Positions 1 to 19,457 of a DNA stretch of 24,000 nucleotides are shown piece by piece. A program made the position numbers and the translations under genes. Where the stretch lies: positions 1,676,967 through 1,700,966 of the forward strand of contig NZ_CM001555.1 of NCBI RefSeq assembly GCF_000275865.1, given 5' to 3'. This stretch comes from Methanofollis liminatans DSM 4140 (lineage in GTDB: Archaea; Halobacteriota; Methanomicrobia; Methanomicrobiales; Methanofollaceae). Positions within the stretch are counted from its first letter, which is position 1; every line of letters begins with the position of its first letter. The notes beneath the pieces were generated by a model. That model saw only the letters and a program-made list of their open reading frames with translations, searched no databases and was not told the origin of the DNA.

Positions 1-38
1 CGGAGATGAACGATGATCCCCTCTTCATCCTGGAACAT
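1..38 (-). CDS. Possible 5' end of a HEPN/DUF86-type toxin gene, truncated by the window edge
   Basis: An ATG at 38..36 overlaps the TGA stop (40..38) of the upstream MNT gene in a TGATG junction and reads MFQDEEGIIVHL to the window edge. Only 12 codons are visible. The partner identity is inferred from the usual MNT-then-HEPN gene order. Confidence 0.25.
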   Translation of the reverse strand, partial: MFQDEEGIIVHL

Positions 39-511
39 CACGGCGATCCCCCCAGGTACCGCCGGTTGAACCAGACCAGCGTCTCTCGATAGTCCTGCCA
101 GGCCGAGATCAGACCCGCTTCATACCTGACCCGTGCAGCAGGCTCACGCACGTACACCGCACGCCCGGTCCTGATCACCTCATAGGCGAACGAGACCGGG
201 GCATCGTTGAGGACCCGGCACTCGACGACGCAGAGGTAGCCGATCGCCCGCTCGATCTCCCCTTCGATGCGCCGGGCGACCTTCATCGCCTCATACGGGG
301 AGAACGACCCGGAAAGGAGAACTGCGCAGTCGAGGTCATGAAACGGCCCCCGGAGAAATGACCCGAAGACATACCCGAGAGAGACTGCCGGGAACCGACC
401 CATGACAAACCCGATCTCCCGGAGAAGGCGAGCCCTCTCCTCCCGGTCGAGGAGATGGAGGCGGCCGGTTTCCGGCCCGAAGAGATCTGCTCCAGGGCTG
501 TCCATCGTCAT
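38..511 (-). CDS. Minimal nucleotidyltransferase (MNT) domain protein, likely antitoxin of a HEPN-MNT module
   Basis: 157-aa ORF carrying the nucleotidyltransferase signature GS-x(n)-D-x-D (YVFGSFLRGPFHDLDCAVLL). GC3 is high. The start could be an internal Met (MGRFP...). Confidence 0.8.
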   Translation of the reverse strand: MTMDSPGADLFGPETGRLHLLDREERARLLREIGFVMGRFPAVSLGYVFGSFLRGPFHDLDCAVLLSGSFSPYEAMKVARRIEGEIERAIGYLCVVECRVLNDAPVSFAYEVIRTGRAVYVREPAARVRYEAGLISAWQDYRETLVWFNRRYLGGSP

Positions 512-928: not shown

Positions 929-1168
929 ATGCAAGAGGAGACGACCACGATCGAAATCGCCAGATCCGACCGGGACCGCTTGAACCACCTCCGTCTCTAC
1001 CCCAGAGAACCATATCGATCCATCGTACGCCGGCTGCTGGAACAGAGCGAGGATACCGAACCGCTGAGCCCAGAGACGATCGCCGAGATCCAGGCGTCGC
1101 TTGACGAGATCAAGCGAGGCGAGTTTGTAACACATGAAGCGCTGAAACGGGATCTGGGGATCGAGTGA
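929..1168 (+). CDS. RelB-like (ribbon-helix-helix type) antitoxin
   Basis: 79-aa ORF. Its stop overlaps the GTG of the downstream RelE-family gene (GTGA at 1165..1168). The N-terminal region looks RHH-like (TTIEIARSDRDRLNHLRL) and the C-terminal tail is acidic. The assignment rests mainly on this pairing. Confidence 0.7.
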   Translation: MQEETTTIEIARSDRDRLNHLRLYPREPYRSIVRRLLEQSEDTEPLSPETIAEIQASLDEIKRGEFVTHEALKRDLGIE

Positions 1169-1428
1169 GATACTCGCTCATCTACTCGAAAAGAGTCCAG
1201 CGCACGATCAAGCATCTCCCGAAGGAAACTGCCACACGCATCATCGGGGCGCTCGAACTGCTGGCGGAAGAAGAATACCCTCACCTCAAGGTGAAGCGCC
1301 TGACGGATTCGCCGCTCTTCTCCCTGAGGGTAGGAGCGTACCGGGTGATCCTGGCGTTTGAGCATCAGCAACTCGTGATCATGGCACTCGATCTCGACCA
1401 CCGAAAAAATGTCTATGATCGCCTGTGA
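1165..1428 (+). CDS. RelE/ParE-family type II toxin
   Basis: 87-aa ORF with the family-typical pattern: an N-terminal Y-x-I-x-YS..V.R.IKHLPK and a C-terminal LRVGAYRVILAFEHQQLVIMALDLDHRKNVY. It has a 4-nt overlap with the antitoxin gene. Confidence 0.85.
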   Translation: MRYSLIYSKRVQRTIKHLPKETATRIIGALELLAEEEYPHLKVKRLTDSPLFSLRVGAYRVILAFEHQQLVIMALDLDHRKNVYDRL

Positions 1429-1915: not shown

Positions 1916-2131
1916 ATGAAGCTCGGTGTTGTGATCGAAAAAGACGAAGACGGCTATTATGTCGGAAACGTTCCCACTCTGCCGGGATGTCACACACAGG
2001 CGAAAAGCATCGACGAACTGATGGAACGGATAAAAGAGGCGATCGCCCTCTATATCGAGGTGAGCGGCATAGATATCGGCGAACACCGGGAGTTCATCGG
2101 GGTGCAATTTGTCGAAGTTGAGGGCTGCTGA
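1916..2131 (+). CDS. hicB: HicB-family (UPF0150) antitoxin
   Basis: 71-aa ORF. MKLGVVIEKDEDGYYVGNVPTLPGCHTQAKSIDELMERIKEAIALYIE is the typical HicB N-terminal domain pattern. It overlaps the hicA start. A TATA-like TGTTATAAGA sits about 35 nt upstream. Confidence 0.85.
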   Translation: MKLGVVIEKDEDGYYVGNVPTLPGCHTQAKSIDELMERIKEAIALYIEVSGIDIGEHREFIGVQFVEVEGC

Positions 2132-2345
2132 TGGCAAAACAGTCGTTCGGGCCCTCCAGCACATAGGTTTTGAACCGATCAGACAGCGAGGCAGCCACGT
2201 CATCCTCAAGCACCCCGATGGAAGGATGACCGTCGTTCCGGTCCATGAAGGAGAGGAGATAGGCAGAGGACTTCTTCGAACAATCATCAGAGAGGCCGGC
2301 CTGACGAAAGACCAGTTCCTGCAGATCCTGGATGAAATATCGTAA
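2109..2345 (+). CDS. hicA: HicA-family mRNA interferase toxin
   Basis: 78-aa ORF with a TTG start. GKTVVRALQHIGFEPIRQRGSHVILKHPDGRMTVVPVH matches the HicA/YcfA pattern, including the GSH motif. Confidence 0.85.
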   Translation: MSKLRAADGKTVVRALQHIGFEPIRQRGSHVILKHPDGRMTVVPVHEGEEIGRGLLRTIIREAGLTKDQFLQILDEIS

Positions 2346-2378: not shown

Positions 2379-2573
2379 ATGTCTGACATCAAGCGCCGGT
2401 ACGTGATCGCCGAAGACAACACCCCGGTCGGCGTCATCATCGACATCGCGACCTTTGAACGGATCGAATCTATTCTCGAAGACTACGGTCTTGCACAGTT
2501 CATCAATGAAGCCGACGACGAAGAGCCCCTCGACCGTGCAGGGGCACAGAAAAAGATACGTGGACCAGGCTGA
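2379..2573 (+). CDS. Phd/YefM- or RelB-like antitoxin, apparently orphan
   Basis: 64-aa ORF. PVGVIIDIATFERIESILEDYGL followed by an acidic tail resembles small antitoxins. No toxin ORF follows before the pilin-like gene. Confidence 0.5.
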   Translation: MSDIKRRYVIAEDNTPVGVIIDIATFERIESILEDYGLAQFINEADDEEPLDRAGAQKKIRGPG

Positions 2574-2637: not shown

Positions 2638-3027
2638 ATGAACCGGCACCACCCTGAAGAAGCGGTCTCCCATGTCCTCGGCGTCGCCCTGATGGTCGCC
2701 CTCGCCGTCATCCTCGCCGCCGTCACCGCCAGCTTCGTCCTGAGCATGACCGGCGGCCTCCAGACGATGAAGTTCGTGAGCGTCGTCGGCGAGAAAAACG
2801 ACGACGGGACGGCGACCTTCACCATCCAGGGCGGGGAGGACCTCAAGACCGTCACCGGGATCGCTCTCGTCTACCAGGACGGCACGGTCGAGCACCACTT
2901 CTTCGGCGCCTCGCCCTCGGCCGGCGCCACCAACACATCAACGAGCAGCGTCGCCGGGCAGCGGATCGTGCTCGCGGCCTCGTTCACCGACGGGACGCAG
3001 ATGATGATCCTGGAAAAACAATTCTGA
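2638..3027 (+). CDS. Archaeal type IV pilin-like protein (class III signal peptide, DUF1628-type N-terminus)
   Basis: The N-terminus EEAVSHVLGVALMVALAVILAAVTASFVL matches the archaeal prepilin/archaellin-like signal (E-x-AVS-x-V-I/L-G followed by a hydrophobic helix). A TATA-like CTATAGATAC sits about 30 nt upstream of the ATG. Confidence 0.75.
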   Translation: MNRHHPEEAVSHVLGVALMVALAVILAAVTASFVLSMTGGLQTMKFVSVVGEKNDDGTATFTIQGGEDLKTVTGIALVYQDGTVEHHFFGASPSAGATNTSTSSVAGQRIVLAASFTDGTQMMILEKQF

Positions 3028-3034
3028 TCTCTTT

Positions 3035-3367
3035 TCACCGCTCACCGCAGCAGGAGGGCTCCTCCTGGCCGCCGCCGCAGCACGACCCATCCCCGCACCC
3101 GCAGACACCGCTGTCCATATCCTTCCCCCGCAGGGCCGCCCCGATCATCGCCCAGGCGCACCCGACCCCGCTCTCCACCTCGATCGCCTGCACCGGGCAG
3201 TTCCGGGCGCACGCCCCGCACTCCATGCACCTCTCCGGGCTGACGCACGCTACGCGGCGGTCGCCGGCTGCAAAGACGCCATGGGGGCAGACCTCAATGC
3301 ACCGCCGGCAGTTGAAGCAGCGCTCAGGGTGGTACCTGAGAGTATTCTCTCCGTACGAGTAGAACAC
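3035..3367 (-). CDS. hgcB: HgcB, 2x[4Fe-4S] ferredoxin of the mercury methylation pair
   Basis: Two CX2CX2CX3CP motifs (CFNCRRCIEVCP and CMECGACARNCP) include the HgcB-typical CMECGAC. The C-terminal tail is Cys-rich and includes CC pairs. The GTG start directly abuts the hgcA stop. Confidence 0.85.
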   Translation of the reverse strand: MFYSYGENTLRYHPERCFNCRRCIEVCPHGVFAAGDRRVACVSPERCMECGACARNCPVQAIEVESGVGCAWAMIGAALRGKDMDSGVCGCGDGSCCGGGQEEPSCCGER

Positions 3368-4396
3368 TCAGATCGCCCCCGTCAGGCGGGCGGCGGCCAG
3401 CAGCAGGACCAGGACGACGCCAGAGAGCGCCATCGCCGCCATGACCGGCACGTACCTGAAGATCTCCCGTTTCACGCCGGTCCGCGAGGTGAACGGCGTC
3501 GATCCCGTGAAGTTGAGGGCGAGGTATGCGGTCACGGCCGGCATGAGGAGCAGGGGCGCAAGGGCCGCCCACCCGGGCAGGGCCGGGTCGCCGGAGACGG
3601 CCCACGCAAAGGGCAGGGCGACGACACCGCCCAGAACGAGCCCTTTCGTGCTGAAGTCCCGGGTCGGGATGAAGGGCAGCAGGGCCGGGAAGAGCACCGT
3701 CCCGGCGAGGACGGCGGCGAGCGCTCCAAGCGCCGCCGGCAGCCCCGCGAGGAGATAGAGGAGGACGGCGCCGGCGAGGGTGGGCAGCGCCGCATGGACC
3801 AGTTCCATCGGCGTCAGCACGATGCGGTCGGCGAACGGGAAGCGGACGCAGCGCATCTCGGGGGTCGCCGTTCCCGCAGCCAGGAACGCAGGGAGATCGG
3901 CGGCCCGGACCGGCCCATAGGTCACCCGGAAACCTGAGCGCCGCAGCACCTCGTGGGCCGAGACCCCGGGGGCGCCGAGCTGCGGAAGAATGAGCGTCCG
4001 GTGCTCCACCACCGACGAAAGCCCGGTGCGTGCAATCTGCCCGACCACCTCGTCGGTCCCGAACGTCCCCTTGCCCGCGGCGCACCAGACATTGATCCCG
4101 CGGGTGTCCAGCACCAGGATATACCCGTCATGGCCGGCGAGGGCAGACCTCAGGGCGTCAAAACTCAGGGTATAGTTCGCCGAGACAAAGACCGGCGACG
4201 CCGGCGTGGGGCGGCCGAGGCTGTACAGCCCGGGCTCCACCCGGTGACCCATCCGGTCCACGCCCCAGCGCGCCAGGACGTGATCGAGGCGGTGGGCGAG
4301 CGTGATCAGGCTGTCCGTCGTCCTGACCTCCGGGACCCCCTGCGTGCAGTCGCACGGGGCGCTTTCCGGGCAGCAATCGCAATCCGTCTGCGCCAC
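3368..4396 (-). CDS. hgcA: HgcA, corrinoid membrane protein of the mercury methylation pair
   Basis: Carries the cap-helix signature GINVWCAAGKGTFGT (N-V-W-C-A-A-G-K) in a CFeSP-like corrinoid domain, followed by four to five hydrophobic helices. GTG start at 4396. Confidence 0.9.
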   Translation of the reverse strand: MAQTDCDCCPESAPCDCTQGVPEVRTTDSLITLAHRLDHVLARWGVDRMGHRVEPGLYSLGRPTPASPVFVSANYTLSFDALRSALAGHDGYILVLDTRGINVWCAAGKGTFGTDEVVGQIARTGLSSVVEHRTLILPQLGAPGVSAHEVLRRSGFRVTYGPVRAADLPAFLAAGTATPEMRCVRFPFADRIVLTPMELVHAALPTLAGAVLLYLLAGLPAALGALAAVLAGTVLFPALLPFIPTRDFSTKGLVLGGVVALPFAWAVSGDPALPGWAALAPLLLMPAVTAYLALNFTGSTPFTSRTGVKREIFRYVPVMAAMALSGVVLVLLLAAARLTGAI

Positions 4397-4400
4397 CCCC

Positions 4401-4697
4401 TCACTCCGGCCCGTCCACCAGCGGCCCGAGAACCTGCTTCACCATGCCGCTCAGGCGCCCGGTCTTCATCAGCGCCAGGCAGCAGACCTCCCCGTCCCGT
4501 TCCCAGGAGATCAGGGCGAGTTTATCGCCGGGCCTGATCCCCGCCTTCTCGCGCACGTCTTTGGGGAGCACCATCTGTCCCCGTTCGTCCACGCTGAGCA
4601 CCGCCTCAACCGTGCAGAGCGATTCGGCGCTGCACCTGCACGGCAGGCCGTCGGGCGAACACAATTCGTCATCAGGAGTATTTCGTGGCATGAGCAT
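4401..4697 (-). CDS. Cys-rich AbrB/MazE/SpoVT-fold DNA-binding-domain protein, first gene of the hgc operon
   Basis: The core ERGQMVLPKDVREKAGIRPGDKLALI is the swapped-hairpin AbrB/SpoVT pattern. It is preceded by C-x6-C-x-C-x5-C and followed by a vicinal CC. The stop lies 4 nt upstream of the hgcA GTG. The start is placed at ATG 4697 (MLMPRNT), because the 27 upstream codons use AT-rich codons and coincide with a tandem DNA repeat. The longer form starting at 4778 is not excluded. Confidence 0.75.
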   Translation of the reverse strand: MLMPRNTPDDELCSPDGLPCRCSAESLCTVEAVLSVDERGQMVLPKDVREKAGIRPGDKLALISWERDGEVCCLALMKTGRLSGMVKQVLGPLVDGPE

Positions 4698-4725
4698 TCC
4701 CGCAGCAACGTGGAGCGCCAGAGTA

Positions 4726-4761
4726 TTTAGAATTATCAGAATGATCAGAATAATCAGAAAG
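4726..4761. repeat. Four tandem 9-bp units in the divergent hgc promoter
   Basis: The plus strand reads TTTAGAATT ATCAGAATG ATCAGAATA ATCAGAAAG, with ATCAGAA at 4735, 4744 and 4753. On the minus strand the last unit reads TTCTAAATA, a TATA-like element about 27 nt upstream of the ATG at 4697. Confidence 0.8.
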
Positions 4762-4817: not shown

Positions 4818-4985
4818 ATGAAGAGCCAGGTGAAATGGGGCCTCGGGTTGATCCTCCTCGGTGCGATCCTCCTGCCCTTCGGCTTCCCGTTTCTCCTCTT
4901 CTATGCCGTCCCGCTCATCCTGATCGGCATAGCCCTCATCATCTTCCGGAACCGGGAAGACCGGATCGAGCAGGTCCAGGAGTAA
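4818..4985 (+). CDS. Small two-TM membrane protein (55 aa), not in the supplied ORF track
   Basis: Reads ATG..TAA as MKSQVKWGLGLILLGAILLPFGFPFLLFYAVPLILIGIALIIFRNREDRIEQVQE. GC3 is strongly high. It ends 5 nt before the YbjQ-family ATG, and the AGGAG preceding that ATG lies within its last codons. Confidence 0.5.
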   Translation: MKSQVKWGLGLILLGAILLPFGFPFLLFYAVPLILIGIALIIFRNREDRIEQVQE

Positions 4986-4990
4986 AAGAG

Positions 4991-5311
4991 ATGATCCTCA
5001 CCACAACAGAAACCGTACCGGGCTACACGGCCACGGTCGTCGGCATCGTCTACGGCAACACCGTCAGGTCGAAAAACATCGGCAAAGACATCATGTCCGG
5101 CCTCAAGAGCATCGTCGGCGGCGAACTCGAGGCCTACACCGAGATGCTCACCGAAGCCAGGCTGGAGGCGATCAACCGGATGGAAAACGCCGCAAAAAAG
5201 ATGGGCGCCGACGCCGTCGTCAACGTCAGGTTCACCACCTCGCAGACGGCGCCGGGGGCGGCCGAACTCCTCGCCTACGGCACGGCGGTGACGCTGGCGC
5301 CGGTCAAATAA
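4991..5311 (+). CDS. YbjQ/UPF0145-family protein (annotated in databases as a heavy-metal-binding domain)
   Basis: MILTTTETVPGY...IVGGELEAYTEML..AR..A..RM...A..MGADAVVNVRF matches the YbjQ pattern. An AGGAG sits upstream of the ATG at 4991. The Pro/Arg-rich 52-aa extension in the track ORF (from 4835) was rejected. Confidence 0.85.
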   Translation: MILTTTETVPGYTATVVGIVYGNTVRSKNIGKDIMSGLKSIVGGELEAYTEMLTEARLEAINRMENAAKKMGADAVVNVRFTTSQTAPGAAELLAYGTAVTLAPVK

Positions 5312-5867
5312 TATATTCTTCCAGCAGGGCGGCCGCCTCGCGCTCCCGCGGTCCCCCGCATTTCCGCACGATGGCAAGGTGGTGGTCGATCAGGGCCTTG
5401 AGCGCCGGATCGCCGTTCTGCACATAGCGCGTGGCATGCACCGTCGCCTCGATGATCCCGGCAAAGCCCCGGTTGTGCGCCTGCACCTTCCCGCCGGCGA
5501 TCACCCCCTCCCCCAGGGGTTCGAGGGCGACAAAATACGTCTCCGCAGTCTCGTGCCTGACCGTCGCCCTAAACGCCGCCCAGGCCTCGCAGGCGGCAAG
5601 CCGCTGCACCGCACGGCCGCCCGCCTCGATCTCGACGAACGCCTCTGGCGGCAGGTCTGCAAACGCCGTCCGCACCCAGACCGCCGGGTCATGGGTGACG
5701 TTCGCCACCACCCAGCCGTCCCGGCGGATATTCGCCTCGGTGTGCGAGCCCTTGAAGAGCACCATCGAGAGGGCGCCGTTCCGGCAGATGATCCCCATCG
5801 GGGCGGCGTTGTCCCGCGTGGTGGCGATCACCTCGTTGATCCCCTCCCTCAGCAGTCCCACTGCCAC
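5304..5867 (-). CDS. DUF447-family protein (archaeal-type C1-transfer/H4MPT-linked gene family)
   Basis: GLLREGINEVIATTRDNAAPMGII...NRGF.AIIEA.VHATR is the DUF447 pattern. The start is placed at GTG 5867 (or GTG 5861), overlapping the stop of the upstream CitG-like gene. The track extension to 5945 lies inside that gene. Confidence 0.8.
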   Translation of the reverse strand: MAVGLLREGINEVIATTRDNAAPMGIICRNGALSMVLFKGSHTEANIRRDGWVVANVTHDPAVWVRTAFADLPPEAFVEIEAGGRAVQRLAACEAWAAFRATVRHETAETYFVALEPLGEGVIAGGKVQAHNRGFAGIIEATVHATRYVQNGDPALKALIDHHLAIVRKCGGPREREAAALLEEYII

Positions 5868-6670
5868 CCCTCCAGCAGGGCGAGATAGATCCCGGCGATC
5901 ATGATGTCGGCCAGGGAGCCCGGATTGATCCCCCGCGCCAGGCACTCCTCGTCGAAGACCGAGAGGGCCAGGCGTCCGGCCTGCACCTCACGCGCCCGCA
6001 GCACCGTCTCCCCGGCGACGGCAGGCCCGTGCTTCTTTGCGATAAAGGTGTCGGGATAGGCGGCGAGCATATCGAGAAACGTCCGCACGATCGCCTCTCT
6101 CCCCGAACCGTGGGCCATGAGGCGGTCGGCCGTCTCGGTACAGAGGGCGAACCCGTTCGTCCACTCCCGTGCCACCATGTCCCGCTCCGCGGAGTAGGCC
6201 ATCACGTCGTAGAGGGTCATCCCCCGCTCGCGGAGGAGATCGGCGGCGCCGGGATCGTTCACGTCGATCTCGTCTTTTTCCAGCACCCGCACCTGCGTCG
6301 CCGAGAAGGCGCGGTAGAAGGCGACGGCGTCCTCGACCGTGGTCTCACGGGCGGCCCGGAAGGCCGCCGACGCCCCCCCGCCGATCACCAGGGGGATCAG
6401 CAGGATGAACGCCCCGAAATGGGTGTTCCCCCCGGCATGGCAGTTCGTGTCCCGCACCGCCGCCTCGATCAGGGCGCCGATCCCGCCCTCGCCCGCTTCG
6501 GCGCGCTCCAGCGCCGCCCGGGCAAAGACCGCCGACGCCAGAAAGTGCTCCAGGCGGGTGTCGGGGTAGTCGTGCCCCCGGTCCACATTGCCGGGCTTGG
6601 GGGAGGCGGTCACCTCCAGCACCATCGCCAGCTGCGCCGCTTCAGTCCTCGTGATCGTCCGGCACCGCAT
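5849..6670 (-). CDS. Triphosphoribosyl-dephospho-CoA synthase (CitG/MdcB)-like protein, H4MPT-linked paralogue
   Basis: LEVTASPKPGNVDRGHDYPDTRLEHFLASA and a later GGNTHFGAFILL match the CitG-family pattern. It is adjacent to DUF447, as in the archaeal-like gene sets of methylotrophs. Confidence 0.85.
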   Translation of the reverse strand: MRCRTITRTEAAQLAMVLEVTASPKPGNVDRGHDYPDTRLEHFLASAVFARAALERAEAGEGGIGALIEAAVRDTNCHAGGNTHFGAFILLIPLVIGGGASAAFRAARETTVEDAVAFYRAFSATQVRVLEKDEIDVNDPGAADLLRERGMTLYDVMAYSAERDMVAREWTNGFALCTETADRLMAHGSGREAIVRTFLDMLAAYPDTFIAKKHGPAVAGETVLRAREVQAGRLALSVFDEECLARGINPGSLADIMIAGIYLALLEGWQWDC

Positions 6671-7929: not shown

Positions 7930-8334
7930 ATGGCAAGAACAGGATTATTACTCGTCGGACACGGCAGCAAACTCCCCTACAATAAGGAGCTCATCGAGAG
8001 CACGGCGGCGCTGATCGCCAGTCAGCACCCGGAGTACCTCGTCAGGCCGGGCTTCATGTCGATGAACGAACCGAGCGTCGACGAGGCCCTGGACGCATTC
8101 AAAAAGGACGAGATCGACCTCCTGATCGTCGTGCCCCTCTTCCTGGCAAAGGGCGTCCACATCCTCCAGGACATCCCCGAGCTCCTCGGCCTGCCCGAGG
8201 GCGCGAAGAAGGGCACCTTCGCCCACGCCACCGGAGCGATCCCCCTGGTCTATGCCGACCCGATCGGCGGCGACCCGCTGCTCGCCGACCTGATGGTCAA
8301 GAACGCCGAAGCGGCGATCCGGTCGAACTCCTGA
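7930..8334 (+). CDS. cfbA: Sirohydrochlorin nickelochelatase/cobaltochelatase, small CbiX-type (CfbA)
   Basis: 134-aa ORF. LLLVGHGSKLPYNKE...LIVVPLFLAKGVHILQDIPE is the CbiX(S) pattern. It is the first gene of the cfb cluster. Confidence 0.9.
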   Translation: MARTGLLLVGHGSKLPYNKELIESTAALIASQHPEYLVRPGFMSMNEPSVDEALDAFKKDEIDLLIVVPLFLAKGVHILQDIPELLGLPEGAKKGTFAHATGAIPLVYADPIGGDPLLADLMVKNAEAAIRSNS

Positions 8335-8336
8335 GA

Positions 8337-9509
8337 ATGAAGATCCTCGTCCTCGACACCATCCACGGCGGCGCCGCCCTCGCAGAGGCCCTGAAGAGGG
8401 CAGGCCATGCCGTCGATATGGTGGACGTCTACCGGGGACGCGAAGGAATACCTGCCGGAGAGGCGGCACGGCGCCGCTACGACCTGGTCGCCGCCCCGGT
8501 CCACCTCGACCCGGCCCATCCTCTCCTCTGTGCGGCGCCCCGGAGGATCACCCACCACGAGGCGGTGCGGATGCTCCTCGTCGGGAACCGCCCGGCCCGG
8601 ATGATCGAGATCACCGGCGCGCGCGGCAAGACGACGACGGCGACCGCCCTTGCCTCGGTGCTGCCCGGCCCGGGCATCCTTCACACCTCGATGGGCACCG
8701 TCCGCTATCCTGAGGGCGTCACCCTCTGGAAACGCTCCATCACCCCGGCCTCGGTGCTCCCGGCGGCGGCGGAGGCGGCCCGTATCGGCGGCTGGCTCGT
8801 CGCCGAGGAGTCCCTCGGCGTCACCGGGGCCGGGGACCTCGCTATTCTCACCGCGACCGGGGACTACACGATCGCCGCCGGGAAAAGGCGCGCCCTTGCC
8901 GAGAAGATCAGGTCCATGAGCGGGTGCGCCGAAGTGCTCATCCCCCCGGGGACCGATCTGCCCGGTGCCTGCGCCGCCGACACGATCGCCGTCGTCACCG
9001 GGACGCTCTGCCGCTACCGGTGGAAAGGGATCGAGGGCGCGTTCGAGAACCCCCTCCTCGCGCTGCCCGGTTACAGGACGCCCCTCCAGATGGCGGCGGC
9101 GGCGGCCTGCCTGCTCGGCGCCGACCCCGCGGCCCTCGCCGCTTTTGCACCCTTAGAGGGCCGGATGGCCGTCGCCCGGCGGGACGGGAAGGTCATCGTC
9201 GACAACGCCAACAGCGGGACCTGCCGGGAGACGGCGGTCGGCGCCGCCGCCTATGCCCGCGCCCTCGCGGGCGGCGGCCCCCTCACCCTGGTGATCGGGA
9301 CCGAGGGGCAGACCATCTGCGAGGGGTTCCCGGCAGATGAGGTGAAACGGACGATCGACGATATCCGCCCTGACCGCGTGGTGCTCGTCGGCGACTACCC
9401 GGAGATCGAGGGAATAACGGCCGGAGACCTTGCAGAAGGGGCCGGCATCGCAGAAGAGATCGCAAACGACGGCGGCGCGGTCGTCCTCGCCGTCAAGACA
9501 TGGAGATAA
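8337..9509 (+). CDS. cfbE: Coenzyme F430 synthetase, Mur-ligase-like (CfbE)
   Basis: 390-aa ORF with a Mur-ligase P-loop (EITGARGKTTTATALASVL). It sits between cfbA and cfbD and starts 2 nt after the cfbA stop. Confidence 0.85.
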   Translation: MKILVLDTIHGGAALAEALKRAGHAVDMVDVYRGREGIPAGEAARRRYDLVAAPVHLDPAHPLLCAAPRRITHHEAVRMLLVGNRPARMIEITGARGKTTTATALASVLPGPGILHTSMGTVRYPEGVTLWKRSITPASVLPAAAEAARIGGWLVAEESLGVTGAGDLAILTATGDYTIAAGKRRALAEKIRSMSGCAEVLIPPGTDLPGACAADTIAVVTGTLCRYRWKGIEGAFENPLLALPGYRTPLQMAAAAACLLGADPAALAAFAPLEGRMAVARRDGKVIVDNANSGTCRETAVGAAAYARALAGGGPLTLVIGTEGQTICEGFPADEVKRTIDDIRPDRVVLVGDYPEIEGITAGDLAEGAGIAEEIANDGGAVVLAVKTWR

Positions 9510-9511
9510 CC

Positions 9512-10585
9512 ATGGATTACATACAGCCAAGGCCCAGTTCAATCGTCGCAGCCCTGTACACCGCCCGGGACCTCGAGGTGGAGGTGGCGATCCTCCACGG
9601 CCCGTCCGGGTGCTCGTTCAAGCACGCCCGCCTCCTCGAAGAGGACGGCATGCGGGTGCTGACCACCTCCCTCGCCGACAACGAGTTCATCTTCGGCGGT
9701 CAGGCGGTTCTCGAGCGGGTGCTCAAGGGAGCCGAGAAAGATTTTGCCCCGAAGCGGATGGCGGTGGTCGGCACCTGCGTCTCGATGATCATCGGCGAGG
9801 ACCTGCAGGCGGCGATCGACGCCTCCGGGGTCGAGACCCCGACGATCGCGATCGACATCCACGCCGGCTTCAGGGAGAACATCCAGGGGGTGCTCGCCGC
9901 CCTCGAACCGGCGGCGGCGATCGGCTGGATCAGCGCCGACGAACTCGAACGGCAGCGGCGGCTGCTCGCGGCGGCGAACGAGGTCGAGCACCTGCGGGGC
10001 GCGGCCTCCCGCTCCTATATCGAGCCCTCCCGCGGCGACCTCAAGCACGTCGCGGCCAGGCGCCTCATCGACCTGGCGCGGGAGGGAAAACGGGGCATCG
10101 CCGTCATGAACGCCAAGAAGGAGACCGCCTATATGTTCGCCGACGAACTCCTCGCCCTCCATGATGCCTGCCCCGACGCCGAGATCACCTACATCGCCAA
10201 CCTCGAAGACCGCGGCCTGCCCAAGGTGCGGGCCGACGCCGCCCGGGTCCTCCAGGGGATGCGCGAGGCCGGGCTCGAGCCCGAACTCCTCGGCGCCCTC
10301 GACGAGTACGGGGCGAACGGCGACGCCATCGGCGAGCGGATCAGGGAGATCGAGCCCGACTTCGCCCTCATCGTCGGCGTCCCCCATGCGGTCCCGCCAG
10401 AGTATACGGCGGGCGTCGAGGTGGTCTCGGTCACCAACGGCCCGCGGCAGGTGGCGCCCCTCCGCGAGATGGGGCACGCGGCGGTCGTCGTCGAGGTGGA
10501 CCTCCACCCCAAGACCCTGGGCGTGCGCTCGATCGTCGAGAGCGAGTTCGGCGCCGTCGTGCGCAGCATCGCCCGGGGTGAATGA
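9512..10585 (+). CDS. cfbD: Ni-sirohydrochlorin a,c-diamide reductive cyclase, NifD/NflD-like subunit (CfbD; methanogenesis marker 13)
   Basis: MDYIQPRPSSIVAALYTARDLEVEVAILHGPSGCSFKHARLLE is the NflD/CfbD pattern. A GGAGA sits 5 nt upstream of ATG 9512, which is preferred over ATG 9500. Confidence 0.85.
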   Translation: MDYIQPRPSSIVAALYTARDLEVEVAILHGPSGCSFKHARLLEEDGMRVLTTSLADNEFIFGGQAVLERVLKGAEKDFAPKRMAVVGTCVSMIIGEDLQAAIDASGVETPTIAIDIHAGFRENIQGVLAALEPAAAIGWISADELERQRRLLAAANEVEHLRGAASRSYIEPSRGDLKHVAARRLIDLAREGKRGIAVMNAKKETAYMFADELLALHDACPDAEITYIANLEDRGLPKVRADAARVLQGMREAGLEPELLGALDEYGANGDAIGERIREIEPDFALIVGVPHAVPPEYTAGVEVVSVTNGPRQVAPLREMGHAAVVVEVDLHPKTLGVRSIVESEFGAVVRSIARGE

Positions 10586-10586
10586 G

Positions 10587-11966
10587 ATGAAGGCCCTCCT
10601 TGTCACCGGGGACCGCTCGGGCAGCGGGAAGACGAGCATCACCCTGGCCGTCGCCGCCCTCCTGGCGCAGGAGGCGCCGGTCCAGACCTACAAGGTGGCG
10701 ATGGACTACATCGACCCTTCGTACCTGACGGCGGTCACCGGGCGCCCGTGCCGGAACCTGGACAGTTACGTGATGGACCCGACCCTGATCAGGGCCGTCT
10801 TCGAGCACGGGGCGAAGGGTGCGGAGATCGCCCTGGTCGAAGGGGTGCGGGGGCTCTACGAGGGGGCCGAGGCGATCGGCGACGCCGGGAGCACGGCCTC
10901 GGTCGCAAAGGCCCTCGACCTGCCGGTGGTGCTGGTCGTGGACGCCCGGAGCATCACCAGGAGCGCCGCCGCCCTGGTGAAGGGTTTTGCCGCCTTCGAC
11001 CCGAAGGTGCGGATCGTCGGGGTGATCCTCAACAACATCAGCAGCGAGGGCCACCGCAGGAAGACCGTGCAGGCGGTCGAGCACTTCTGCAACATCCCGG
11101 TCATCGGAGCGATCCCGAAGAGCGAGGAGATGCGGCTTGCGATGCGCCACCTCGGGCTGGTGCCGTACCGCGAGGGCCAGGAGAGCGGCGACTTCCTCGA
11201 CCGGATCAACGCCGTAAAAGAGGTGATCGGGTCGTACATCGACCTCGACGCCCTCAAGGCCCTGATGGAGGACTACCGCTTTGTCGGCGCCTCCGGGCCG
11301 TTCGCCCGCACCCACGAGGCCGACGTCACGGTGGCGGTCGCCTACGACGAGGCCTTCAACTTCTACTACAACGATCTCTTCGACGTCCTGCACGCCGGCG
11401 GGGCCGAGATCCGCACCTTCAGCCCGGTCCACGACCCCCTGCCCGCGGCCGACGGCTACATCGTCGGCGGCGGCTATCCCGAGATGCACGCCCCGGCGCT
11501 CGAGGCGAACGACCGGTGCCGGGAGGCGCTGAAGGAGGCCGCGGCAAACGGCGTGCCCATCTACGCCGAGTGCGGCGGGCTCATCTACCTCACCGAGCGG
11601 CTGGTCCTGCGGGCCGGGTGGCAGGGGCGGGAGCGAGAGGAGACCTGCACCATGTGCGGGGTCTTTTCAGGCGAGACCGTGATGCCGGCCCACCGCACCC
11701 TCGGCTACGTGGAGGGGCGGGCCGGGGCTGCGTGCCCCTTCGGCGAGGGGGCGTTCCGGGGCCACGAGTTCCATTACTCAGAGGTGCGGCTCGCGCCGGA
11801 GACGACGTTTGCCTACACCCTCTCCCGCGGCACCGGGATTAAGGGGGCGCTGGACGGGGCGGTGACCGAACAGACCCTGGCAAGTTACACGCACCTCCAC
11901 CCGGCGGCGAGTGCCGACTTTTTCCGTGGTTTTCTTCAGGCGTGCAGGCAGGGGCCGCGCTCCTGA
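10587..11966 (+). CDS. cfbB: Ni-sirohydrochlorin a,c-diamide synthase, CbiA-family amidotransferase (CfbB)
   Basis: [26 protein letters not shown], together with a C-terminal glutamine amidotransferase region ([12 protein letters not shown]), fits CbiA/CobB architecture. ATG 10587 lies 1 nt after the cfbD stop. The track's 142-aa upstream extension is out-of-frame overlap with cfbD. Confidence 0.9.
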
Positions 11967-15194: not shown

Positions 15195-18100
15195 TCACAG
15201 GTTCCACGCCCATTCGGGCATGGGGAGAGGGGTGGTGGAGAACCCGGCAAGGGTGGCGGGGTTCTCCATATAGACCCAGTAGCCGCAGGTGGCGTCCATA
15301 TCGGGTGCATCGTCCCCGCGGGTGAAGACCCAGGACTCGGGGTTGATCGACGGCGAGACGACGACGGTGTATCCGTCGCGGCCGTCAGGGGTGTACGCGA
15401 CGGTGGTCAGGGCTGTCGTGACCGACGTCCCGTAGGGCTCGCCCCACCAGAAGTACGCCTGGCCGATCGGCTCAGGGAGACCGACCAGGGCATAGGCCGG
15501 GCCGACCAGGTTCCACCCTGCCTCGAGGGTGCGGGTCGGCGGGCTCGTGACCTCCGGGCTGATCCGGACCGGCAGGCGGTCGTAGTCGTTCATCCTGACG
15601 TACACAGCATCGAGCGGGTTGATCGTGCTCGCATCGGTCACCTGGACCCAGCGCCCGGCACCGGCGTCCCAGGCATAGGCGACGGCGTAATCGAGGCCGT
15701 CGCCGAGGCCGGTGGCCGCCCCCCAGGTGGCGTTCTCAAGGGCCAGCGGGAACGAGAGGGTGTTCCATCCGGGCTCAAGCCCGGTGCGGTAACCGTCGCC
15801 GCCGATGAAGGGCGACCCGATCTCAAGCCCGAAGTACGACTTCCCGGTCTCCAGGACGACGTCCGCCGGCCTGGTCAGCCAGGGCTCGTACAGGGCGGCG
15901 CCGTAGACCGGGCTCCCTGTTCCGGGGCCGGTGCCAGACGGCCCGCTGGCGTCGCCCCACCAGTTGTGGGTGGCATAGGGCTCGTAGACCTCCCCGTCAT
16001 AGGAGTACGGGAAACCTGCATAGCCGTTGTTGATGGTGTTGAAGGTGGCGTCGCCGCCCACCGAGAGGATACCAAGGTCCAGGCCGATGAGCTGGGTCTC
16101 GCCGTCCACCCGGTCGCCCCGGCACATGCCCACCAGGGCTGCCCATGCCTCACCGTCCACGGTGTTCGCGTCGATATACGAGGGGTTCAGGCTGACGATG
16201 CCGACGTTGATCACCCCGATAACGCCGAGAATACCGGCGTCTTCGAGGAGCTCCTCAGTCGCCGCCTCGACAGTTCCTTCGGCGTTCGCCGCCGTGAAGA
16301 CGGTGTTGTTCGTGATGCACGAACGCAGGGTCACGATACCCCCGGAGGCGGCGATCCCCAGGTTTGCAGCCCCGGCACCGGGCAGGCCGGAGCCTGCCGC
16401 CAGGATGACAGGATCAGAGAGGTCCGTGACCTCTGCAACGGCCATGCTGTTCTGGCTTGCGACGGCGCTGACGGTGTTGTCCAGCACACTGGCCTCGGGT
16501 GCGACGATACCGAAACTCGCCGCGGCACCGACCGCCGCAGAGAGGGCATGGGAAGAGCCGTCAAGAGGCGGGTCGAGCAGCATCCCGGCGAGCGAGGCGA
16601 CGTTGATCTCGTCGGTGACCGAGACCGTGTTGCCCTGGATCACGTCGCCGAAGGCGTCGTCCATCGTGGGAGGAACGGGGGCGTAGGTCCCGGCGTCCAG
16701 GATCGTGCCGGCATCGAGGACGATGCCGACGCCCACGCCCGCCGTGGCCGCAACGCTGAGGGCTATCCGGTCCTTTACCAGGGCGACCGCCTCGGCGATC
16801 GCCTCCGTGGTCTGCAGGACGGTGATGTTGTTGCCCTGGACCAGGCTCTCATCGCCGTCTGCACAGATACCCGCCGCGAGGAAGAGGTGAGCGGTGCCGG
16901 CCGCCGCGTCCGAGGTCTCGATATCGCTTCCAGAGGCGATGTTCAGGTATATGCCGGAGGTGCCCACCTCGACGGTGTTCTCCGCCAGCCTGGCCGCATC
17001 GCTCGTCCCGATGATGCCGAAGGAGGTCACGAGACCGGCAGATCCGGCGGCGGCGTCGGGCACATCGGCGTTCTCGCTCTCGGCGACGGCGATCCCGATG
17101 CTCGAGGTCAGGACCGAGAAGGTGTTCTCATAGACCTGCGTCTCACCTTCGGCAGTGTAGAGGAGGCCGTAGTTCATCGAGACCGGGACGGCGGCTGCAA
17201 GCCTGGTCCCGTTCAGGAACCCGAACAGCTCATCGCTCTCAAGGATCTCCTGGTAACCGGCGATGATCTCGTCCACGCCGGATCCCGCGGGGAAGAGGCC
17301 GTCGGTCTCGGCATAGAGTGCAAGGGCGTCGGCGTCGCCGTTGATGACGGCGTCGGTGATCGCCGCCCTCTCCTCTACGGAGAGGTTCTGCCACGCATCG
17401 CCGTTCTCGTCGATGAGGCTGAGGACAGCGGCCTGCTGCATCTGTTCGCCGGCAAAGGCCTGCTCGATGAGCCCGAGCGGCATGGCACCCTCACAGAGTG
17501 CCGCCGCCTCCTCCTCTCCGACCGGCAGGCTGGATACAAGGGAGAGGGCGTTCAGGGAGACCGGGACGATGTTGCGGCAGACCGTCGGGTCCACGACGTC
17601 TTCGAGGACGATGCCGGCCGTCACCGTGCGGACCTGGGCGAGGCACACCTCGTCGATACGGGGTTCGAAGGCAAGGGCGCTGCTCAGATCGACGTCCAGG
17701 CCTTCAACCTCCTCGAAGGCGGAGAGAGCAGAGGCGCGGTTCTCCTTTGCATCCATCACGGCGGCGTACCTGGCCTGAAGGTCGCTGTTATCCGCAAGGG
17801 CGTCGCCGAACACGCCGGAGAGCGGACCAAGAAACGTCATGCTCTGCGCCGAAACAGAGACCGCGTTCCCGTCGACTACCGGGCTCTGGACGGGTTCATC
17901 CCACCAGCCCCGGACAGAGATGCCGGTCATCATGAGTTCGCCGGCGATGCCCGCAAAGGGTTCGTCCGGCGTCCCCCCGTCATGGGCGAACACGCCGCCG
18001 AAGGTCTCGACGACATTCTCCAGGATCTCGGGTTCGTCGCTCTCATAGACATCGATGCCGTTTACGCTGCCGGACACCCGGAGCAGGTCGTCATCACCGT

Positions 18101-19448
18101 CGCGGGTCCGGTCCCGGATCGTCATACTCTCCACGACGGCGACGTTCTCGCTCACCCGGCACGCGTCGCACTCCTCGAGATAGATGCCCTCGACCGCCAC
18201 GCGGCAGGTCTCGGGCGACCCGCTGGCAGAGAGGGTATAGGAGATGTCGTTCCTGGTGACCTGGGCCCTGACGGATTCAAAGGCCGTGATGCCGGCCGGT
18301 CTCATCCGCCCGTCGTTCCCGCCGGTGCTGGCGCATTCTACCTCCACAGAGACGGTATTGTTGAGGACCCGCCCCTTCTCGGCCCAACCGAGACGGATGC
18401 CGACCGGCTGGACGATGCTGGATACGGTGCTGATCTCGACGGTGTTGCCCTCGATGAGGGTGAGGTCGCCGGCGCCGTGGATGCCGAGCGTCCGGGTTCT
18501 GTTGGGTGCAAGCCCGACGACGGTGACCTCATTCTCGATGATTGAGGCACTTTCCGAGTCGCAGGACCTGATCCCCCATACGTCGGCAGAGACGTAGACC
18601 CCTTCAACCTCGTCGCCGAGACCCATGGAGACGACCTGGTTGCCCTCGACGAGAACAGAGGGGCTCTCCAGGACCGTGACACCGTCGGGCGCCAGTGATA
18701 GGTACTGCTCCTCTTCTATGGTGGAGAGCGGTTTGTTATCCTCAGGAACGAGGGCGGCAAGGACCAGGTTGACGGCGCCCACCTCGACCGGCCCAACCTC
18801 CGGGGCCCGTGAGGCGGCAAGGATGCGGTTGTCGCGGACGCGGGCTTCAGGCGCCCTGTCGAGGGTGACACCCATCTGGTGGCCTGATCCCATGACAAGC
18901 ACCATGTTGTCGCCGATGCAGGCCCCCGCGCCGTCCTCGACGAGAATGCCGCAGGTGTCCGGGGCGGCATCGTTGAGGAGAGAGACGTAGTTGTGCTCGA
19001 GGGAGACGGCATCGGCGCCATGGGCGAAGATGCCGATCTCGGTGGCGTTGGCGACCTCAAAACCGCTGAAGGTGACGTTATCCGCGGTGATCTCGACACC
19101 GATCGCCTCGCCGGGGACGTCGAGGATCGGTATCCCCTCATCGAGGGCGGTCAGTGCGGAGACGCCCAGGACGCTCATGCTCCGGTCGATCACGAGAGCC
19201 TCGCGGTATGTCCCGTTATGGACCCATACCTCGCCGCCCGTCGCCACGCCGTCTATGGCCTCCTGGATGCTGGAGAAGTTTAAGTAACCGTAGTCGGGCG
19301 TCTGGTCAGTGTACGATTCGTTCACGGCGACCCTGTCAGGCAGGGCCACCGCAGCTGCCGGTGCCGTCAGCATCACGCAGAAGAGCACCATCAGCGCAAA
19401 AAGAAGTCTTGGATGGAGAAGTATCCCCACCCCGGGGGCTTTAACCAT
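15195..19448 (-). CDS. Giant secreted right-handed beta-helix (PbH1/NosD-like repeat) surface protein, about 1417 aa
   Basis: The N-terminal signal peptide is MVKAPGVGILLHPRLLFALMVLFCVMLTAPAAAVA. Many x-N-T-V-x-V beta-helix rungs are present (ENTVEV, GNTVSV, NNTVSVEV, GNTVEIS). An AGGTGAT Shine-Dalgarno sequence sits 4 nt upstream of ATG 19448. There is no C-terminal anchor. Confidence 0.85.
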   Translation of the reverse strand: MVKAPGVGILLHPRLLFALMVLFCVMLTAPAAAVALPDRVAVNESYTDQTPDYGYLNFSSIQEAIDGVATGGEVWVHNGTYREALVIDRSMSVLGVSALTALDEGIPILDVPGEAIGVEITADNVTFSGFEVANATEIGIFAHGADAVSLEHNYVSLLNDAAPDTCGILVEDGAGACIGDNMVLVMGSGHQMGVTLDRAPEARVRDNRILAASRAPEVGPVEVGAVNLVLAALVPEDNKPLSTIEEEQYLSLAPDGVTVLESPSVLVEGNQVVSMGLGDEVEGVYVSADVWGIRSCDSESASIIENEVTVVGLAPNRTRTLGIHGAGDLTLIEGNTVEISTVSSIVQPVGIRLGWAEKGRVLNNTVSVEVECASTGGNDGRMRPAGITAFESVRAQVTRNDISYTLSASGSPETCRVAVEGIYLEECDACRVSENVAVVESMTIRDRTRDGDDDLLRVSGSVNGIDVYESDEPEILENVVETFGGVFAHDGGTPDEPFAGIAGELMMTGISVRGWWDEPVQSPVVDGNAVSVSAQSMTFLGPLSGVFGDALADNSDLQARYAAVMDAKENRASALSAFEEVEGLDVDLSSALAFEPRIDEVCLAQVRTVTAGIVLEDVVDPTVCRNIVPVSLNALSLVSSLPVGEEEAAALCEGAMPLGLIEQAFAGEQMQQAAVLSLIDENGDAWQNLSVEERAAITDAVINGDADALALYAETDGLFPAGSGVDEIIAGYQEILESDELFGFLNGTRLAAAVPVSMNYGLLYTAEGETQVYENTFSVLTSSIGIAVAESENADVPDAAAGSAGLVTSFGIIGTSDAARLAENTVEVGTSGIYLNIASGSDIETSDAAAGTAHLFLAAGICADGDESLVQGNNITVLQTTEAIAEAVALVKDRIALSVAATAGVGVGIVLDAGTILDAGTYAPVPPTMDDAFGDVIQGNTVSVTDEINVASLAGMLLDPPLDGSSHALSAAVGAAASFGIVAPEASVLDNTVSAVASQNSMAVAEVTDLSDPVILAAGSGLPGAGAANLGIAASGGIVTLRSCITNNTVFTAANAEGTVEAATEELLEDAGILGVIGVINVGIVSLNPSYIDANTVDGEAWAALVGMCRGDRVDGETQLIGLDLGILSVGGDATFNTINNGYAGFPYSYDGEVYEPYATHNWWGDASGPSGTGPGTGSPVYGAALYEPWLTRPADVVLETGKSYFGLEIGSPFIGGDGYRTGLEPGWNTLSFPLALENATWGAATGLGDGLDYAVAYAWDAGAGRWVQVTDASTINPLDAVYVRMNDYDRLPVRISPEVTSPPTRTLEAGWNLVGPAYALVGLPEPIGQAYFWWGEPYGTSVTTALTTVAYTPDGRDGYTVVVSPSINPESWVFTRGDDAPDMDATCGYWVYMENPATLAGFSTTPLPMPEWAWNL

Positions 19449-19457
19449 GTCTATCAC

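Follow-up and report, generated by a model that had tools for sequence, protein, structure and literature searches.

The gene pair hgcAB is the genetic determinant of mercury methylation, its abundance predicts methylmercury production poorly, and archaeal methylators matter in rice paddies and wetlands. The control of hgcAB expression and the native role of HgcAB are open questions of mercury biogeochemistry. Here we analyse a stretch of 24,000 nt from Methanofollis liminatans DSM 4140 (hereafter the window; coordinates are window positions), in which hgcA and hgcB are preceded by hgcC, a gene for a Cys-rich protein of the AbrB/SpoVT fold. HgcC is probably an autorepressor of the hgcC-hgcA-hgcB operon, released by a thiol-binding metal(loid) that would most likely be As(III) and possibly Hg(II).

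The systems closest in logic are those of the ArsR/SmtB family, which occupy the same slot: a small autoregulated first gene ahead of hgcAB or ars genes. Their sensing elements are Cys thiolates, often vicinal pairs on flexible termini, a role that for HgcC is predicted from its conserved cysteines. The folds are unrelated (winged helix-turn-helix in ArsR/SmtB, a predicted swapped hairpin in HgcC) and no ArsR/SmtB model of Pfam or NCBIfam matches HgcC at E <= 0.1, so that HgcC is likened to this family by logic and is not a member of it. In Pseudodesulfovibrio mercurii ND132 hgcAB has an ArsR-like regulator that responds to arsenic, and a response of the bacterial ArsR-like hgcAB regulator to arsenic and S-adenosylhomocysteine has been described (bioRxiv 10.1101/2022.10.17.512643). 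The placement of the cysteines that bind As(III) defines the ArsR classes, among which one selective for methylarsenite makes do with two (PMC9213503). ArsD and MerR capture As(III) or Hg(II) by Cys thiolates, as is proposed here for HgcC; no sequence or fold relation to either was found. ArsD both binds DNA and hands metal on (PMC9213503). MerR, seated in the promoter spacer, activates by DNA distortion, a mechanism unlike the one proposed for HgcC.

In fold, HgcC is closest to AbrB, Abh, SpoVT and MraZ, with which it shares the swapped-hairpin signature. MraZ uses tandem TGGGN repeats, a point of background that our literature search did not confirm. These AbrB-type relatives are global regulators, whereas HgcC carries six conserved Cys and appears as a local, operon-specific gene; we know of no metal-sensing member of the AbrB fold. 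The AbrB consensus has two parts, TGGNA 5-mers in direct or inverted orientation that are set apart by an AT-rich spacer of 4-5 bp (PMC3738160).

The only control element proposed in print for archaeal hgcAB goes by the vague name of 'toxin-antitoxin' gene. In the study of Zhang et al. 2023 (PMC10349881), 14 of 35 contigs had an abrB/prlF/mazE-like 'TA (toxin-antitoxin) gene' immediately ahead of hgcA, as had 8 of 31 confirmed methylators, among them 6 archaea. The authors proposed the gene as an archaeal hgcAB regulator; the word 'cysteine' occurs nowhere in that paper. The gene upstream of hgcA is likewise labelled toxin-antitoxin in PMC13362967.

The hgcC-hgcA-hgcB operon

The features of the operon and of its upstream region are as follows.
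3012..3020, minus strand: T-rich tract TGTTTTTCC, about 15 nt past the hgcB stop, found by sequence reading only
3035..3367, minus strand: hgcB, 110 amino acids, GTG start, 2x[4Fe-4S] ferredoxin (open reading frame (ORF), NF040864 and Pfam Fer4 families)
3368..4396, minus strand: hgcA, 342 amino acids, GTG start, corrinoid methyl-transfer protein (ORF, NF040863 and Pfam CdhD)
4401..4691, minus strand: hgcC, 96 amino acids from ATG 4691, Cys-rich AbrB/SpoVT-fold protein (NF040962, TIGR01439, PF04014)
4724..4732, minus strand: TATA-box-like element TTCTAAATA, in the register of a fourth repeat unit and about 33 nt upstream of ATG 4691
4733..4759, minus strand: predicted HgcC operator, three tandem 9-bp units TTCTGATTA, TTCTGATCA and TTCTGATAA, each with the core TCWGA (coding-strand repeats)

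The hgcA stop codon (3370-3368) abuts the hgcB GTG (3367) on the same strand, and only 4 nt (GGGG) separate the hgcC TGA (4403-4401) from the hgcA GTG (4396), with GGAG just 5' of that stop. An initial annotation of this DNA, made from the sequence alone, had read the three genes as a tightly packed, co-oriented unit; the junctions were re-read and confirmed, and the profile hidden Markov model searches that it had proposed placed the HgcA, HgcB and AbrB models all above their cutoffs. The T-rich tract is a candidate archaeal oligo-T terminator of the operon; a scan for bacterial-type terminators gave no match at this tract.

HgcA matches NCBIfam NF040863 with 452.9 bits (cutoff 275), its residues 25-333 covering model positions 2-322 of 325. 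The cap-helix motif NVWCAAGK with the cobalt-ligand Cys is present in the translation (GINVWCAAGKGTFGT), as annotated initially, and the C-terminal part is a membrane domain. HgcB, also correctly recognized before as an HgcB-type ferredoxin, matches NF040864 with 116.9 bits (cutoff 99) and has two C-x2-C-x2-C-x3-C-P motifs, CFNCRRCIEVCP and CMECGACARNCP, followed by a Cys-rich C-terminal tail, GVCGCGDGSCCGGGQEEPSCCGER, with vicinal Cys pairs (SCC...SCC).

The conservation of this arrangement was analysed using one genome per GTDB species. At least 533 genomes contain a relative of HgcC, and the best 80 loci (802 kb) were fetched; 77 of them are informative and the other 3 end at contig edges. 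The order hgcC-hgcA-hgcB was found again in 53 genome loci and is therefore not a chance arrangement. Between the hgcC stop and the hgcA start the median distance is 6.5 nt (49 of the 53 loci, those with a placeable hgcA start).

Identity and fold of HgcC

HgcC is a member of an already named, curated family. It matches NCBIfam NF040962, 'HgcAB-associated protein HgcC', with 125.8 bits (cutoff 70) over model positions 2-69 of 70, and is 99% identical to the 96-residue NCBI protein 'HgcAB-associated protein HgcC [Methanofollis tationis]'. The initial annotation had not recognized the protein as characterized: it has been named by NCBI and its position was published in 2023 (PMC10349881), while no experiment on it was found in the literature. 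With a curated family and a published link to archaeal hgcA, the finding of the gene as such is not new. The window protein and the gene of PMC10349881 agree in family membership (by the score given above) and in the seat directly upstream of hgcA. Both the NF040962 name and that paper rest on gene neighbourhood alone, and neither mentions the conserved Cys, the arsM-linked members or the operator described below; the 70-position model moreover omits the N-terminal Cys tail that HgcC carries. Full-text literature searches returned no paper on HgcC cysteine conservation, arsM-linked members or the operator, and nothing relevant tying arsM to AbrB, SpoVT, MazE or PrlF.

The true start of hgcC is probably ATG 4691 (96 amino acids) rather than ATG 4697 (98 amino acids), the start assumed initially, since the start column of ATG 4691 is common to 119 of 121 close homologues and the NCBI protein has 96 residues. 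A longer ORF of 125 amino acids, starting with GTG and reaching to 4778, was rejected: its extra N-terminus merely translates the operator repeats and the homologues start at ATG 4691.

The AbrB/SpoVT core that had been noticed in this protein is borne out by matches above cutoff to TIGR01439 (AbrB; 38 bits, cutoff 28.3) and to PF04014 (MazE_antitoxin, the best Pfam match; 32.1 bits, cutoff 24.7), besides NF040962. In a profile search of the PDB the closest solved sequences were SpoVT, AbrB, Abh and archaeal AbrB-family DNA-binding regulators. The AlphaFold2 (AF2) monomer has the order beta 25-33, alpha 44-50, beta 57-65, beta 68-76 and alpha 77-92, with a mean predicted local distance difference test (pLDDT) score of 78.5. 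When this monomer was compared with the PDB by Foldseek, no hit reached E <= 0.001 and the best one was an AbrB model with E = 0.58; a single chain of what would be an obligate swapped-hairpin dimer makes a poor query, and the result does not count against the fold. D35, R37, G38, Q39 and R47 are invariant, and R47 aligns with a conserved arginine of the SpoVT PKEIRR helix in the profile alignment. HgcC differs from its relatives in having Q39 (..DeRGQ..) in the loop where SpoVT has an arginine (..DDLGR..) and a short helical C-terminus in place of the AbrB or SpoVT C-domains.

A predicted tandem-repeat operator upstream of hgcC

The window operator consists of three TTCTGATNA units at 4733-4759, directly adjoining TTCTAAATA, a putative promoter element. 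The pattern TCWGA-N4-TCWGA has only 2 matches in the whole window, which overlap each other (4736-4758), where 0.11 would be expected. The same kind of array recurs throughout the family: 2-5 tandem 9-bp units wTTCTGAww (core TCWGA) lie upstream of almost every member, in archaea and bacteria. The exact dimer is found in 60 of 79 upstream regions (45 of 53 hgc-linked, 13 of 23 arsM-linked and 2 of 3 contig-end loci), and the upstream regions without it carry one-mismatch versions. Across the 802 kb of loci, 77 of the 82 dimer matches fall in the 160-nt upstream windows, at a median of -55 relative to the start codon. From core to core the spacing is 9 bp (77 pairs), 18 bp (38), 27 bp (17) or 36 bp (7) and almost nothing else. 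A few exact matches occur elsewhere in the loci (e.g. L017:3216 and L022:11982) and may be due to chance. The target resembles that of AbrB in being built of 5-mers with a 4-bp AT-rich spacer, here in tandem; the 5-mer itself is TCWGA in HgcC and TGGNA in AbrB.

The placement of the array was compared with promoter elements. In archaeal loci it abuts the TATA box (..TTCTGAAAAGTATAAATA..), with (G)TATAAATA at the same distance as in the window; in bacterial loci it falls on or between the -35 (TTGACA) and -10 elements. Both are classic repressor positions. A sigma-70 promoter scan of the window was set aside, the model being bacterial and the host archaeal; its sole promoter-like match lies on the opposite strand inside the repeats.

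An independent set of 80 metagenomic relatives of the window HgcA was then used, comparing those loci with enough upstream sequence. The dimer is present upstream of hgcA in 15 of 18 loci with hgcC and in 0 of 42 without it (Fisher P = 1.5e-11). For the regulatory role suggested in the initial annotation, the conserved tandem-repeat operator across hgcC's own promoter is strong support. That HgcC is a DNA-binding regulator is a prediction from sequence that we consider well supported: by its fold, by basic residues that do not vary and by an operator that accompanies the gene in both archaea and bacteria and ahead of both kinds of cargo operon.

Partner genes: hgcAB or arsM

The HgcC-family gene has hgcA and hgcB directly downstream in 53 of the 77 informative loci. 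In the remaining 24, arsM, encoding arsenite S-adenosylmethionine methyltransferase (355-361 bits on NF008823, cutoff 263), is present without hgcA. It follows directly in 23 loci, at a distance of -4 to about +110 nt, and in locus L043 it stands behind a second, divergent HgcC-family copy. None of the 77 loci has both partners and none has neither. The view that HgcC is dedicated to the hgc operon therefore does not hold: the family sits directly upstream of arsM in 23 of 77 loci, L043 being an additional case. The association with hgcA for which a neighbourhood survey had been proposed is real in that hgcAB is directly downstream in most loci, and incomplete in that arsM replaces it in the others and that hgcC is found in only 20 of 64 (about 31%) informative metagenomic loci of hgcA relatives.

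The arsM-linked proteins score as high on the NF040962 'HgcC' model (118-128 bits) as the hgc-linked ones. In a rough neighbour-joining tree the window protein lies in a large hgc-linked Methanomicrobia clade; in a second clade arsM- and hgcAB-linked members are interspersed, which indicates repeated exchange of the partner. Among distant representatives, two also precede arsM, one of them with a His-rich tail. For the Cys-less or variant representatives P0262 and P0265 the contigs are too short to settle the partner by themselves; behind P0265 they show just the beginning of an arsM gene.

The L043 locus (Methanoregula) contains two divergent HgcC paralogues, at 5454-5726 (minus strand) and 6001-6297 (plus strand). 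One precedes arsM; the tail of the other ends in Tyr-Asn instead of Cys, and this copy precedes an unrelated 225-residue ORF. At L083 a Cys-free member, P0247 (211-492), overlaps the start of a 675-residue ORF (489-2516) that has no NCBIfam match and no Pfam match on record; this ORF may represent a third partner type for Cys-less relatives.

Conserved cysteines of HgcC

The C-x6-C-x-C-x5-C motif, the AbrB-like core and the vicinal CC seen initially are all present in the upstream ORF. The six cysteines are located as follows.
4614..4661, minus strand: N-terminal Cys cluster C11, C18, C20 and C26 (numbering of the 96-residue protein; C-x6-C-x-C-x5-C), read from the codons and ending one residue before beta1
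4479..4484, minus strand: vicinal pair C70-C71, at the start of strand beta4

Conservation was measured in 120 close relatives (121 sequences with the window protein) and in 150 representatives of 50%-identity clusters, of which 143 with an N-terminal tail were counted. Among the close relatives the tail positions are Cys in 63% (C11), 81% (C18), 98% (C20) and 97% (C26), and the vicinal CC is invariant (121 of 121 sequences). It is equally invariant in the 81 genome-locus proteins, hgcAB- and arsM-linked alike, nearly all of which also have a Cys just ahead of beta1; the arsM-linked proteins keep all cysteines. The conservation on which the initial annotation had made its proposal depend is thus found both for the CC (81 of 81) and, at 63-98% of the 120 close relatives, for the tail. 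Among the diverse representatives, 107 of 143 have the internal CC, 106 of 143 a Cys within 4 residues of beta1 and 113 of 143 at least two tail Cys.

The tail begins with a basic M-x-K-K and is then Cys-rich. Its Cys spacing varies: most lineages have CC...CC[KR], some members CC-x5-9-CC, and the Methanomicrobiales clade has C-x6-C-x-C-x5-C. The tail is predicted to be disordered (pLDDT about 50, AF2). Variable spacing and predicted disorder would both be expected of a flexible tail that binds a metal(loid).

HgcA too has a Cys-rich N-terminal extension, MAQTDCDCCPESAPCDC (residues 1-20; 4337-4396, minus strand), ahead of the region covered by the HgcA model. In the 49 hgcC-linked genome loci with a placeable hgcA start (among L002-L054) it typically contains 4-6 Cys (SCCSC...PC.C), and in L067 it contains 33 Cys in about nine copies of a 19-residue repeat, DCCNSASPCSCGSETKDTP. 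Beside the N-terminal tail of HgcC and the C-terminal tail of HgcB, this extension means that all three operon proteins have flexible thiol-rich tails.

Arsenic genes around hgcC loci

A gene for an ArsC-like protein, ACR3, ArsR or an ArsP-like permease lies within 6 kb in 21 of the 53 hgcCAB loci. The ArsC-like and ACR3 examples score slightly under the equivalog cutoffs; those families are nonetheless their best matches. In about ten Methanoregula-type loci an ArsC-like gene begins at the hgcB stop or at most about 20 nt from it. It comes right after hgcB in L002, L004, L006, L008, L012, L014, L019, L024 and L026, and acr3 does so in L049 and L050; with either gene, hgcC-hgcA-hgcB becomes a four-gene unit behind one operator. 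In metagenomic loci lacking hgcC, the slot upstream of hgcA, which ArsR can take where hgcC is absent, is held by ArsR with a CVC motif (5), an ArsP-like permease (3), MarR (3), ArsM (2) or ACR3 (2). In two such loci, L100 (1531-2451) and L158 (1707-2444), hgcA is immediately preceded on its own strand by an arsM-like gene, with gaps of -13 and +33 nt, so that both metal(loid) methylation systems are adjacent there.

Sharing of the HgcC family between arsM and hgcAB operons, together with the ars genes inside hgcCAB operons, independently reinforces the link between arsenic and mercury methylation proposed on the basis of the bacterial ArsR-like regulator. The gene context points at least as much to arsenic as to mercury and favours As(III) as the ligand of HgcC; binding of Hg(II) to the same thiolate site is chemically likely.

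Proposed mechanism and alternatives

The mechanism that we propose comprises several steps: (i) a dimer of HgcC dimers would bind the three tandem 9-bp units (4733-4759) abutting the TATA-like box, (ii) HgcC on the operator would block assembly of the transcription machinery, (iii) the six Cys of each monomer, four in the flexible N-terminal tail that ends at beta1 and the CC on beta4, would form a thiolate site, (iv) a thiol-binding metal(loid) would be captured there, As(III) being the most probable and Hg(II) plausible as well, and (v) binding would shift the tail and the DNA-binding face, so that the operator would be freed and hgcAB induced. The sequences show family membership and fold class, the conservation of the cysteines, the packing of the operon, the conserved operator with its strict co-occurrence with the regulator gene, and the use of the family with arsM as the other partner. 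That HgcC itself would bind the repeats, that it would repress rather than activate, which ligand it would take and how it would be released are inferred. That the ligand is a metal(loid) at all is, on balance, slightly favoured.

Several points weigh against this model. The co-occurrence of operator and regulator gene is strong but correlative. No ars gene was found in the 24-kb window. The internal CC is missing in about a quarter of the diverse representatives, and the thiol chemistry is therefore not universal in the wider family. HgcC may be an activator rather than a repressor, its Cys clusters could just as well be ligands of Zn or of an Fe-S cluster or respond to redox state, and our literature search found no experiment on any member of the HgcC family.

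Should those Cys carry an Fe-S cluster or structural Zn, or act as a redox-sensitive disulfide switch, HgcC would still be a DNA-binding autorepressor, and its signal would be redox, sulfide or oxygen. The operator evidence fits this possibility equally well, six Cys per monomer with four nearly invariant are compatible with it, the hosts are strictly anaerobic, and HgcA/HgcB and ArsM need reduced thiols. We nevertheless regard it as unlikely: the tail Cys have no fixed spacing, the disorder predicted for the tail would be uncommon in a site for Fe-S or structural Zn, and a redox signal leaves unexplained both the ars neighbours and the restriction of the neighbourhood to hgcAB or arsM (77 of 77 informative loci).

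HgcC might alternatively be mainly a metallochaperone that passes Hg(II) or As(III) to HgcB/HgcA or ArsM, with DNA binding secondary, as in ArsD, which is a weak repressor and a chaperone (PMC9213503). The tight operon with the enzymes (the 4-nt gap in the window and the short median gap across loci) is in line with hand-off, as are the flexible Cys-rich tails of HgcC, HgcA and HgcB and the CC pairs at the ArsM N-termini in linked loci. Against this, the AbrB-fold residues central to DNA binding do not vary, and a pure chaperone, which the initial annotation had offered as an option for Hg, leaves unexplained a promoter-overlapping array that is kept from archaea to bacteria and occurs only where the gene is present. 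A mainly chaperoning HgcC is thus quite unlikely; by analogy with ArsD, a dual role as regulator and chaperone is perhaps to be envisaged.

It is highly improbable that HgcC is an orphan antitoxin of the MazE/PrlF type, a toxin-antitoxin remnant that stands by chance beside hgcA in a module-rich region, for all that its best Pfam match is named 'MazE_antitoxin', that the Joint Genome Institute names many homologues 'antitoxin PrlF', that ParE, HicAB and RelB-like modules lie 0.5-2.5 kb off in the window and that PMC10349881 and PMC13362967 both speak of a toxin-antitoxin gene: in none of the 77 informative loci is the HgcC-family gene followed by a toxin gene, the methylation gene beside it being hgcA or arsM throughout, the protein has its own curated model and scores far above its cutoff, conserved Cys and a specific operator are foreign to antitoxins, and the neighbouring modules of the window are complete pairs of other families.

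For HgcC as a metal(loid)-released autorepressor, the conservation of the cysteines, the use with arsM and the operator suggest a metal(loid) sensor on a scaffold new to that job. We further put forward, tentatively, that HgcC represents a new structural class of metal(loid)-sensing repressor (AbrB scaffold, Cys tail plus CC, TCWGA operator) whose sensor-operator cassette may have been placed before arsM or hgcAB several times. The analysis offers a concrete testable model: a protein, an operator (4733-4759), candidate ligand residues (C26, C70, C71 and tail Cys) and a predicted induction by As(III) and/or Hg(II). If the inducer is As(III), hgcAB in methanogens would be an arsenic-controlled operon, in Methanoregula often running into an ArsC-like gene or acr3, and the native role of HgcAB would then lie in metalloid handling rather than mercury. 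Confirmation would add a member of the AbrB fold to the known metal-sensor families and provide a compact sensor-operator pair for biosensing in anaerobes.

Neighbouring genes in the window

The genes around the operon are of methanogen type: a coenzyme F430/corrinoid-type cluster, an archaeal pilin and several toxin-antitoxin pairs. The neighbouring features are as follows.
38-511, minus strand: nucleotidyltransferase, toxin-antitoxin-type cluster
929-1428, plus strand: DUF7557/ParE-like pair, same cluster
1916-2345, plus strand: HicB/HicA, same cluster
2379-2573, plus strand: RelB-like gene, same cluster
2638-3027, plus strand: archaeal type IV pilin, convergent with hgcB
4818-4985, plus strand: 55-residue hydrophobic protein, divergent from the hgcC promoter region
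4988-5311, plus strand: YbjQ-family protein (PF01906 'putative heavy-metal-binding', 128.7 bits), divergent from the hgcC promoter region
7930-8334, plus strand: CbiX (Pfam)
8337-9509, plus strand: 390-residue ORF, no Pfam match
9500-10585, plus strand: nitrogenase-component-1-like protein (Pfam)
10161-11966, plus strand: CobB/CobQ-type amidotransferase (Pfam)
15195-19457, minus strand: 1420-residue ORF with weak beta-helix and NosD-like repeats, overlapping a long opposite-strand ORF in GC-rich DNA

The toxin-antitoxin-type cluster (38-2573) suggests a variable region flanking the hgc operon. The genes at 7930-11966 (plus strand) look like a coenzyme F430 biosynthesis cluster, cfb names being assignable from the Pfam matches only. 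The 1420-residue ORF probably encodes a surface protein. The divergent arrangement of the 55-residue and YbjQ-family proteins also occurs in the Methanofollis locus L001.

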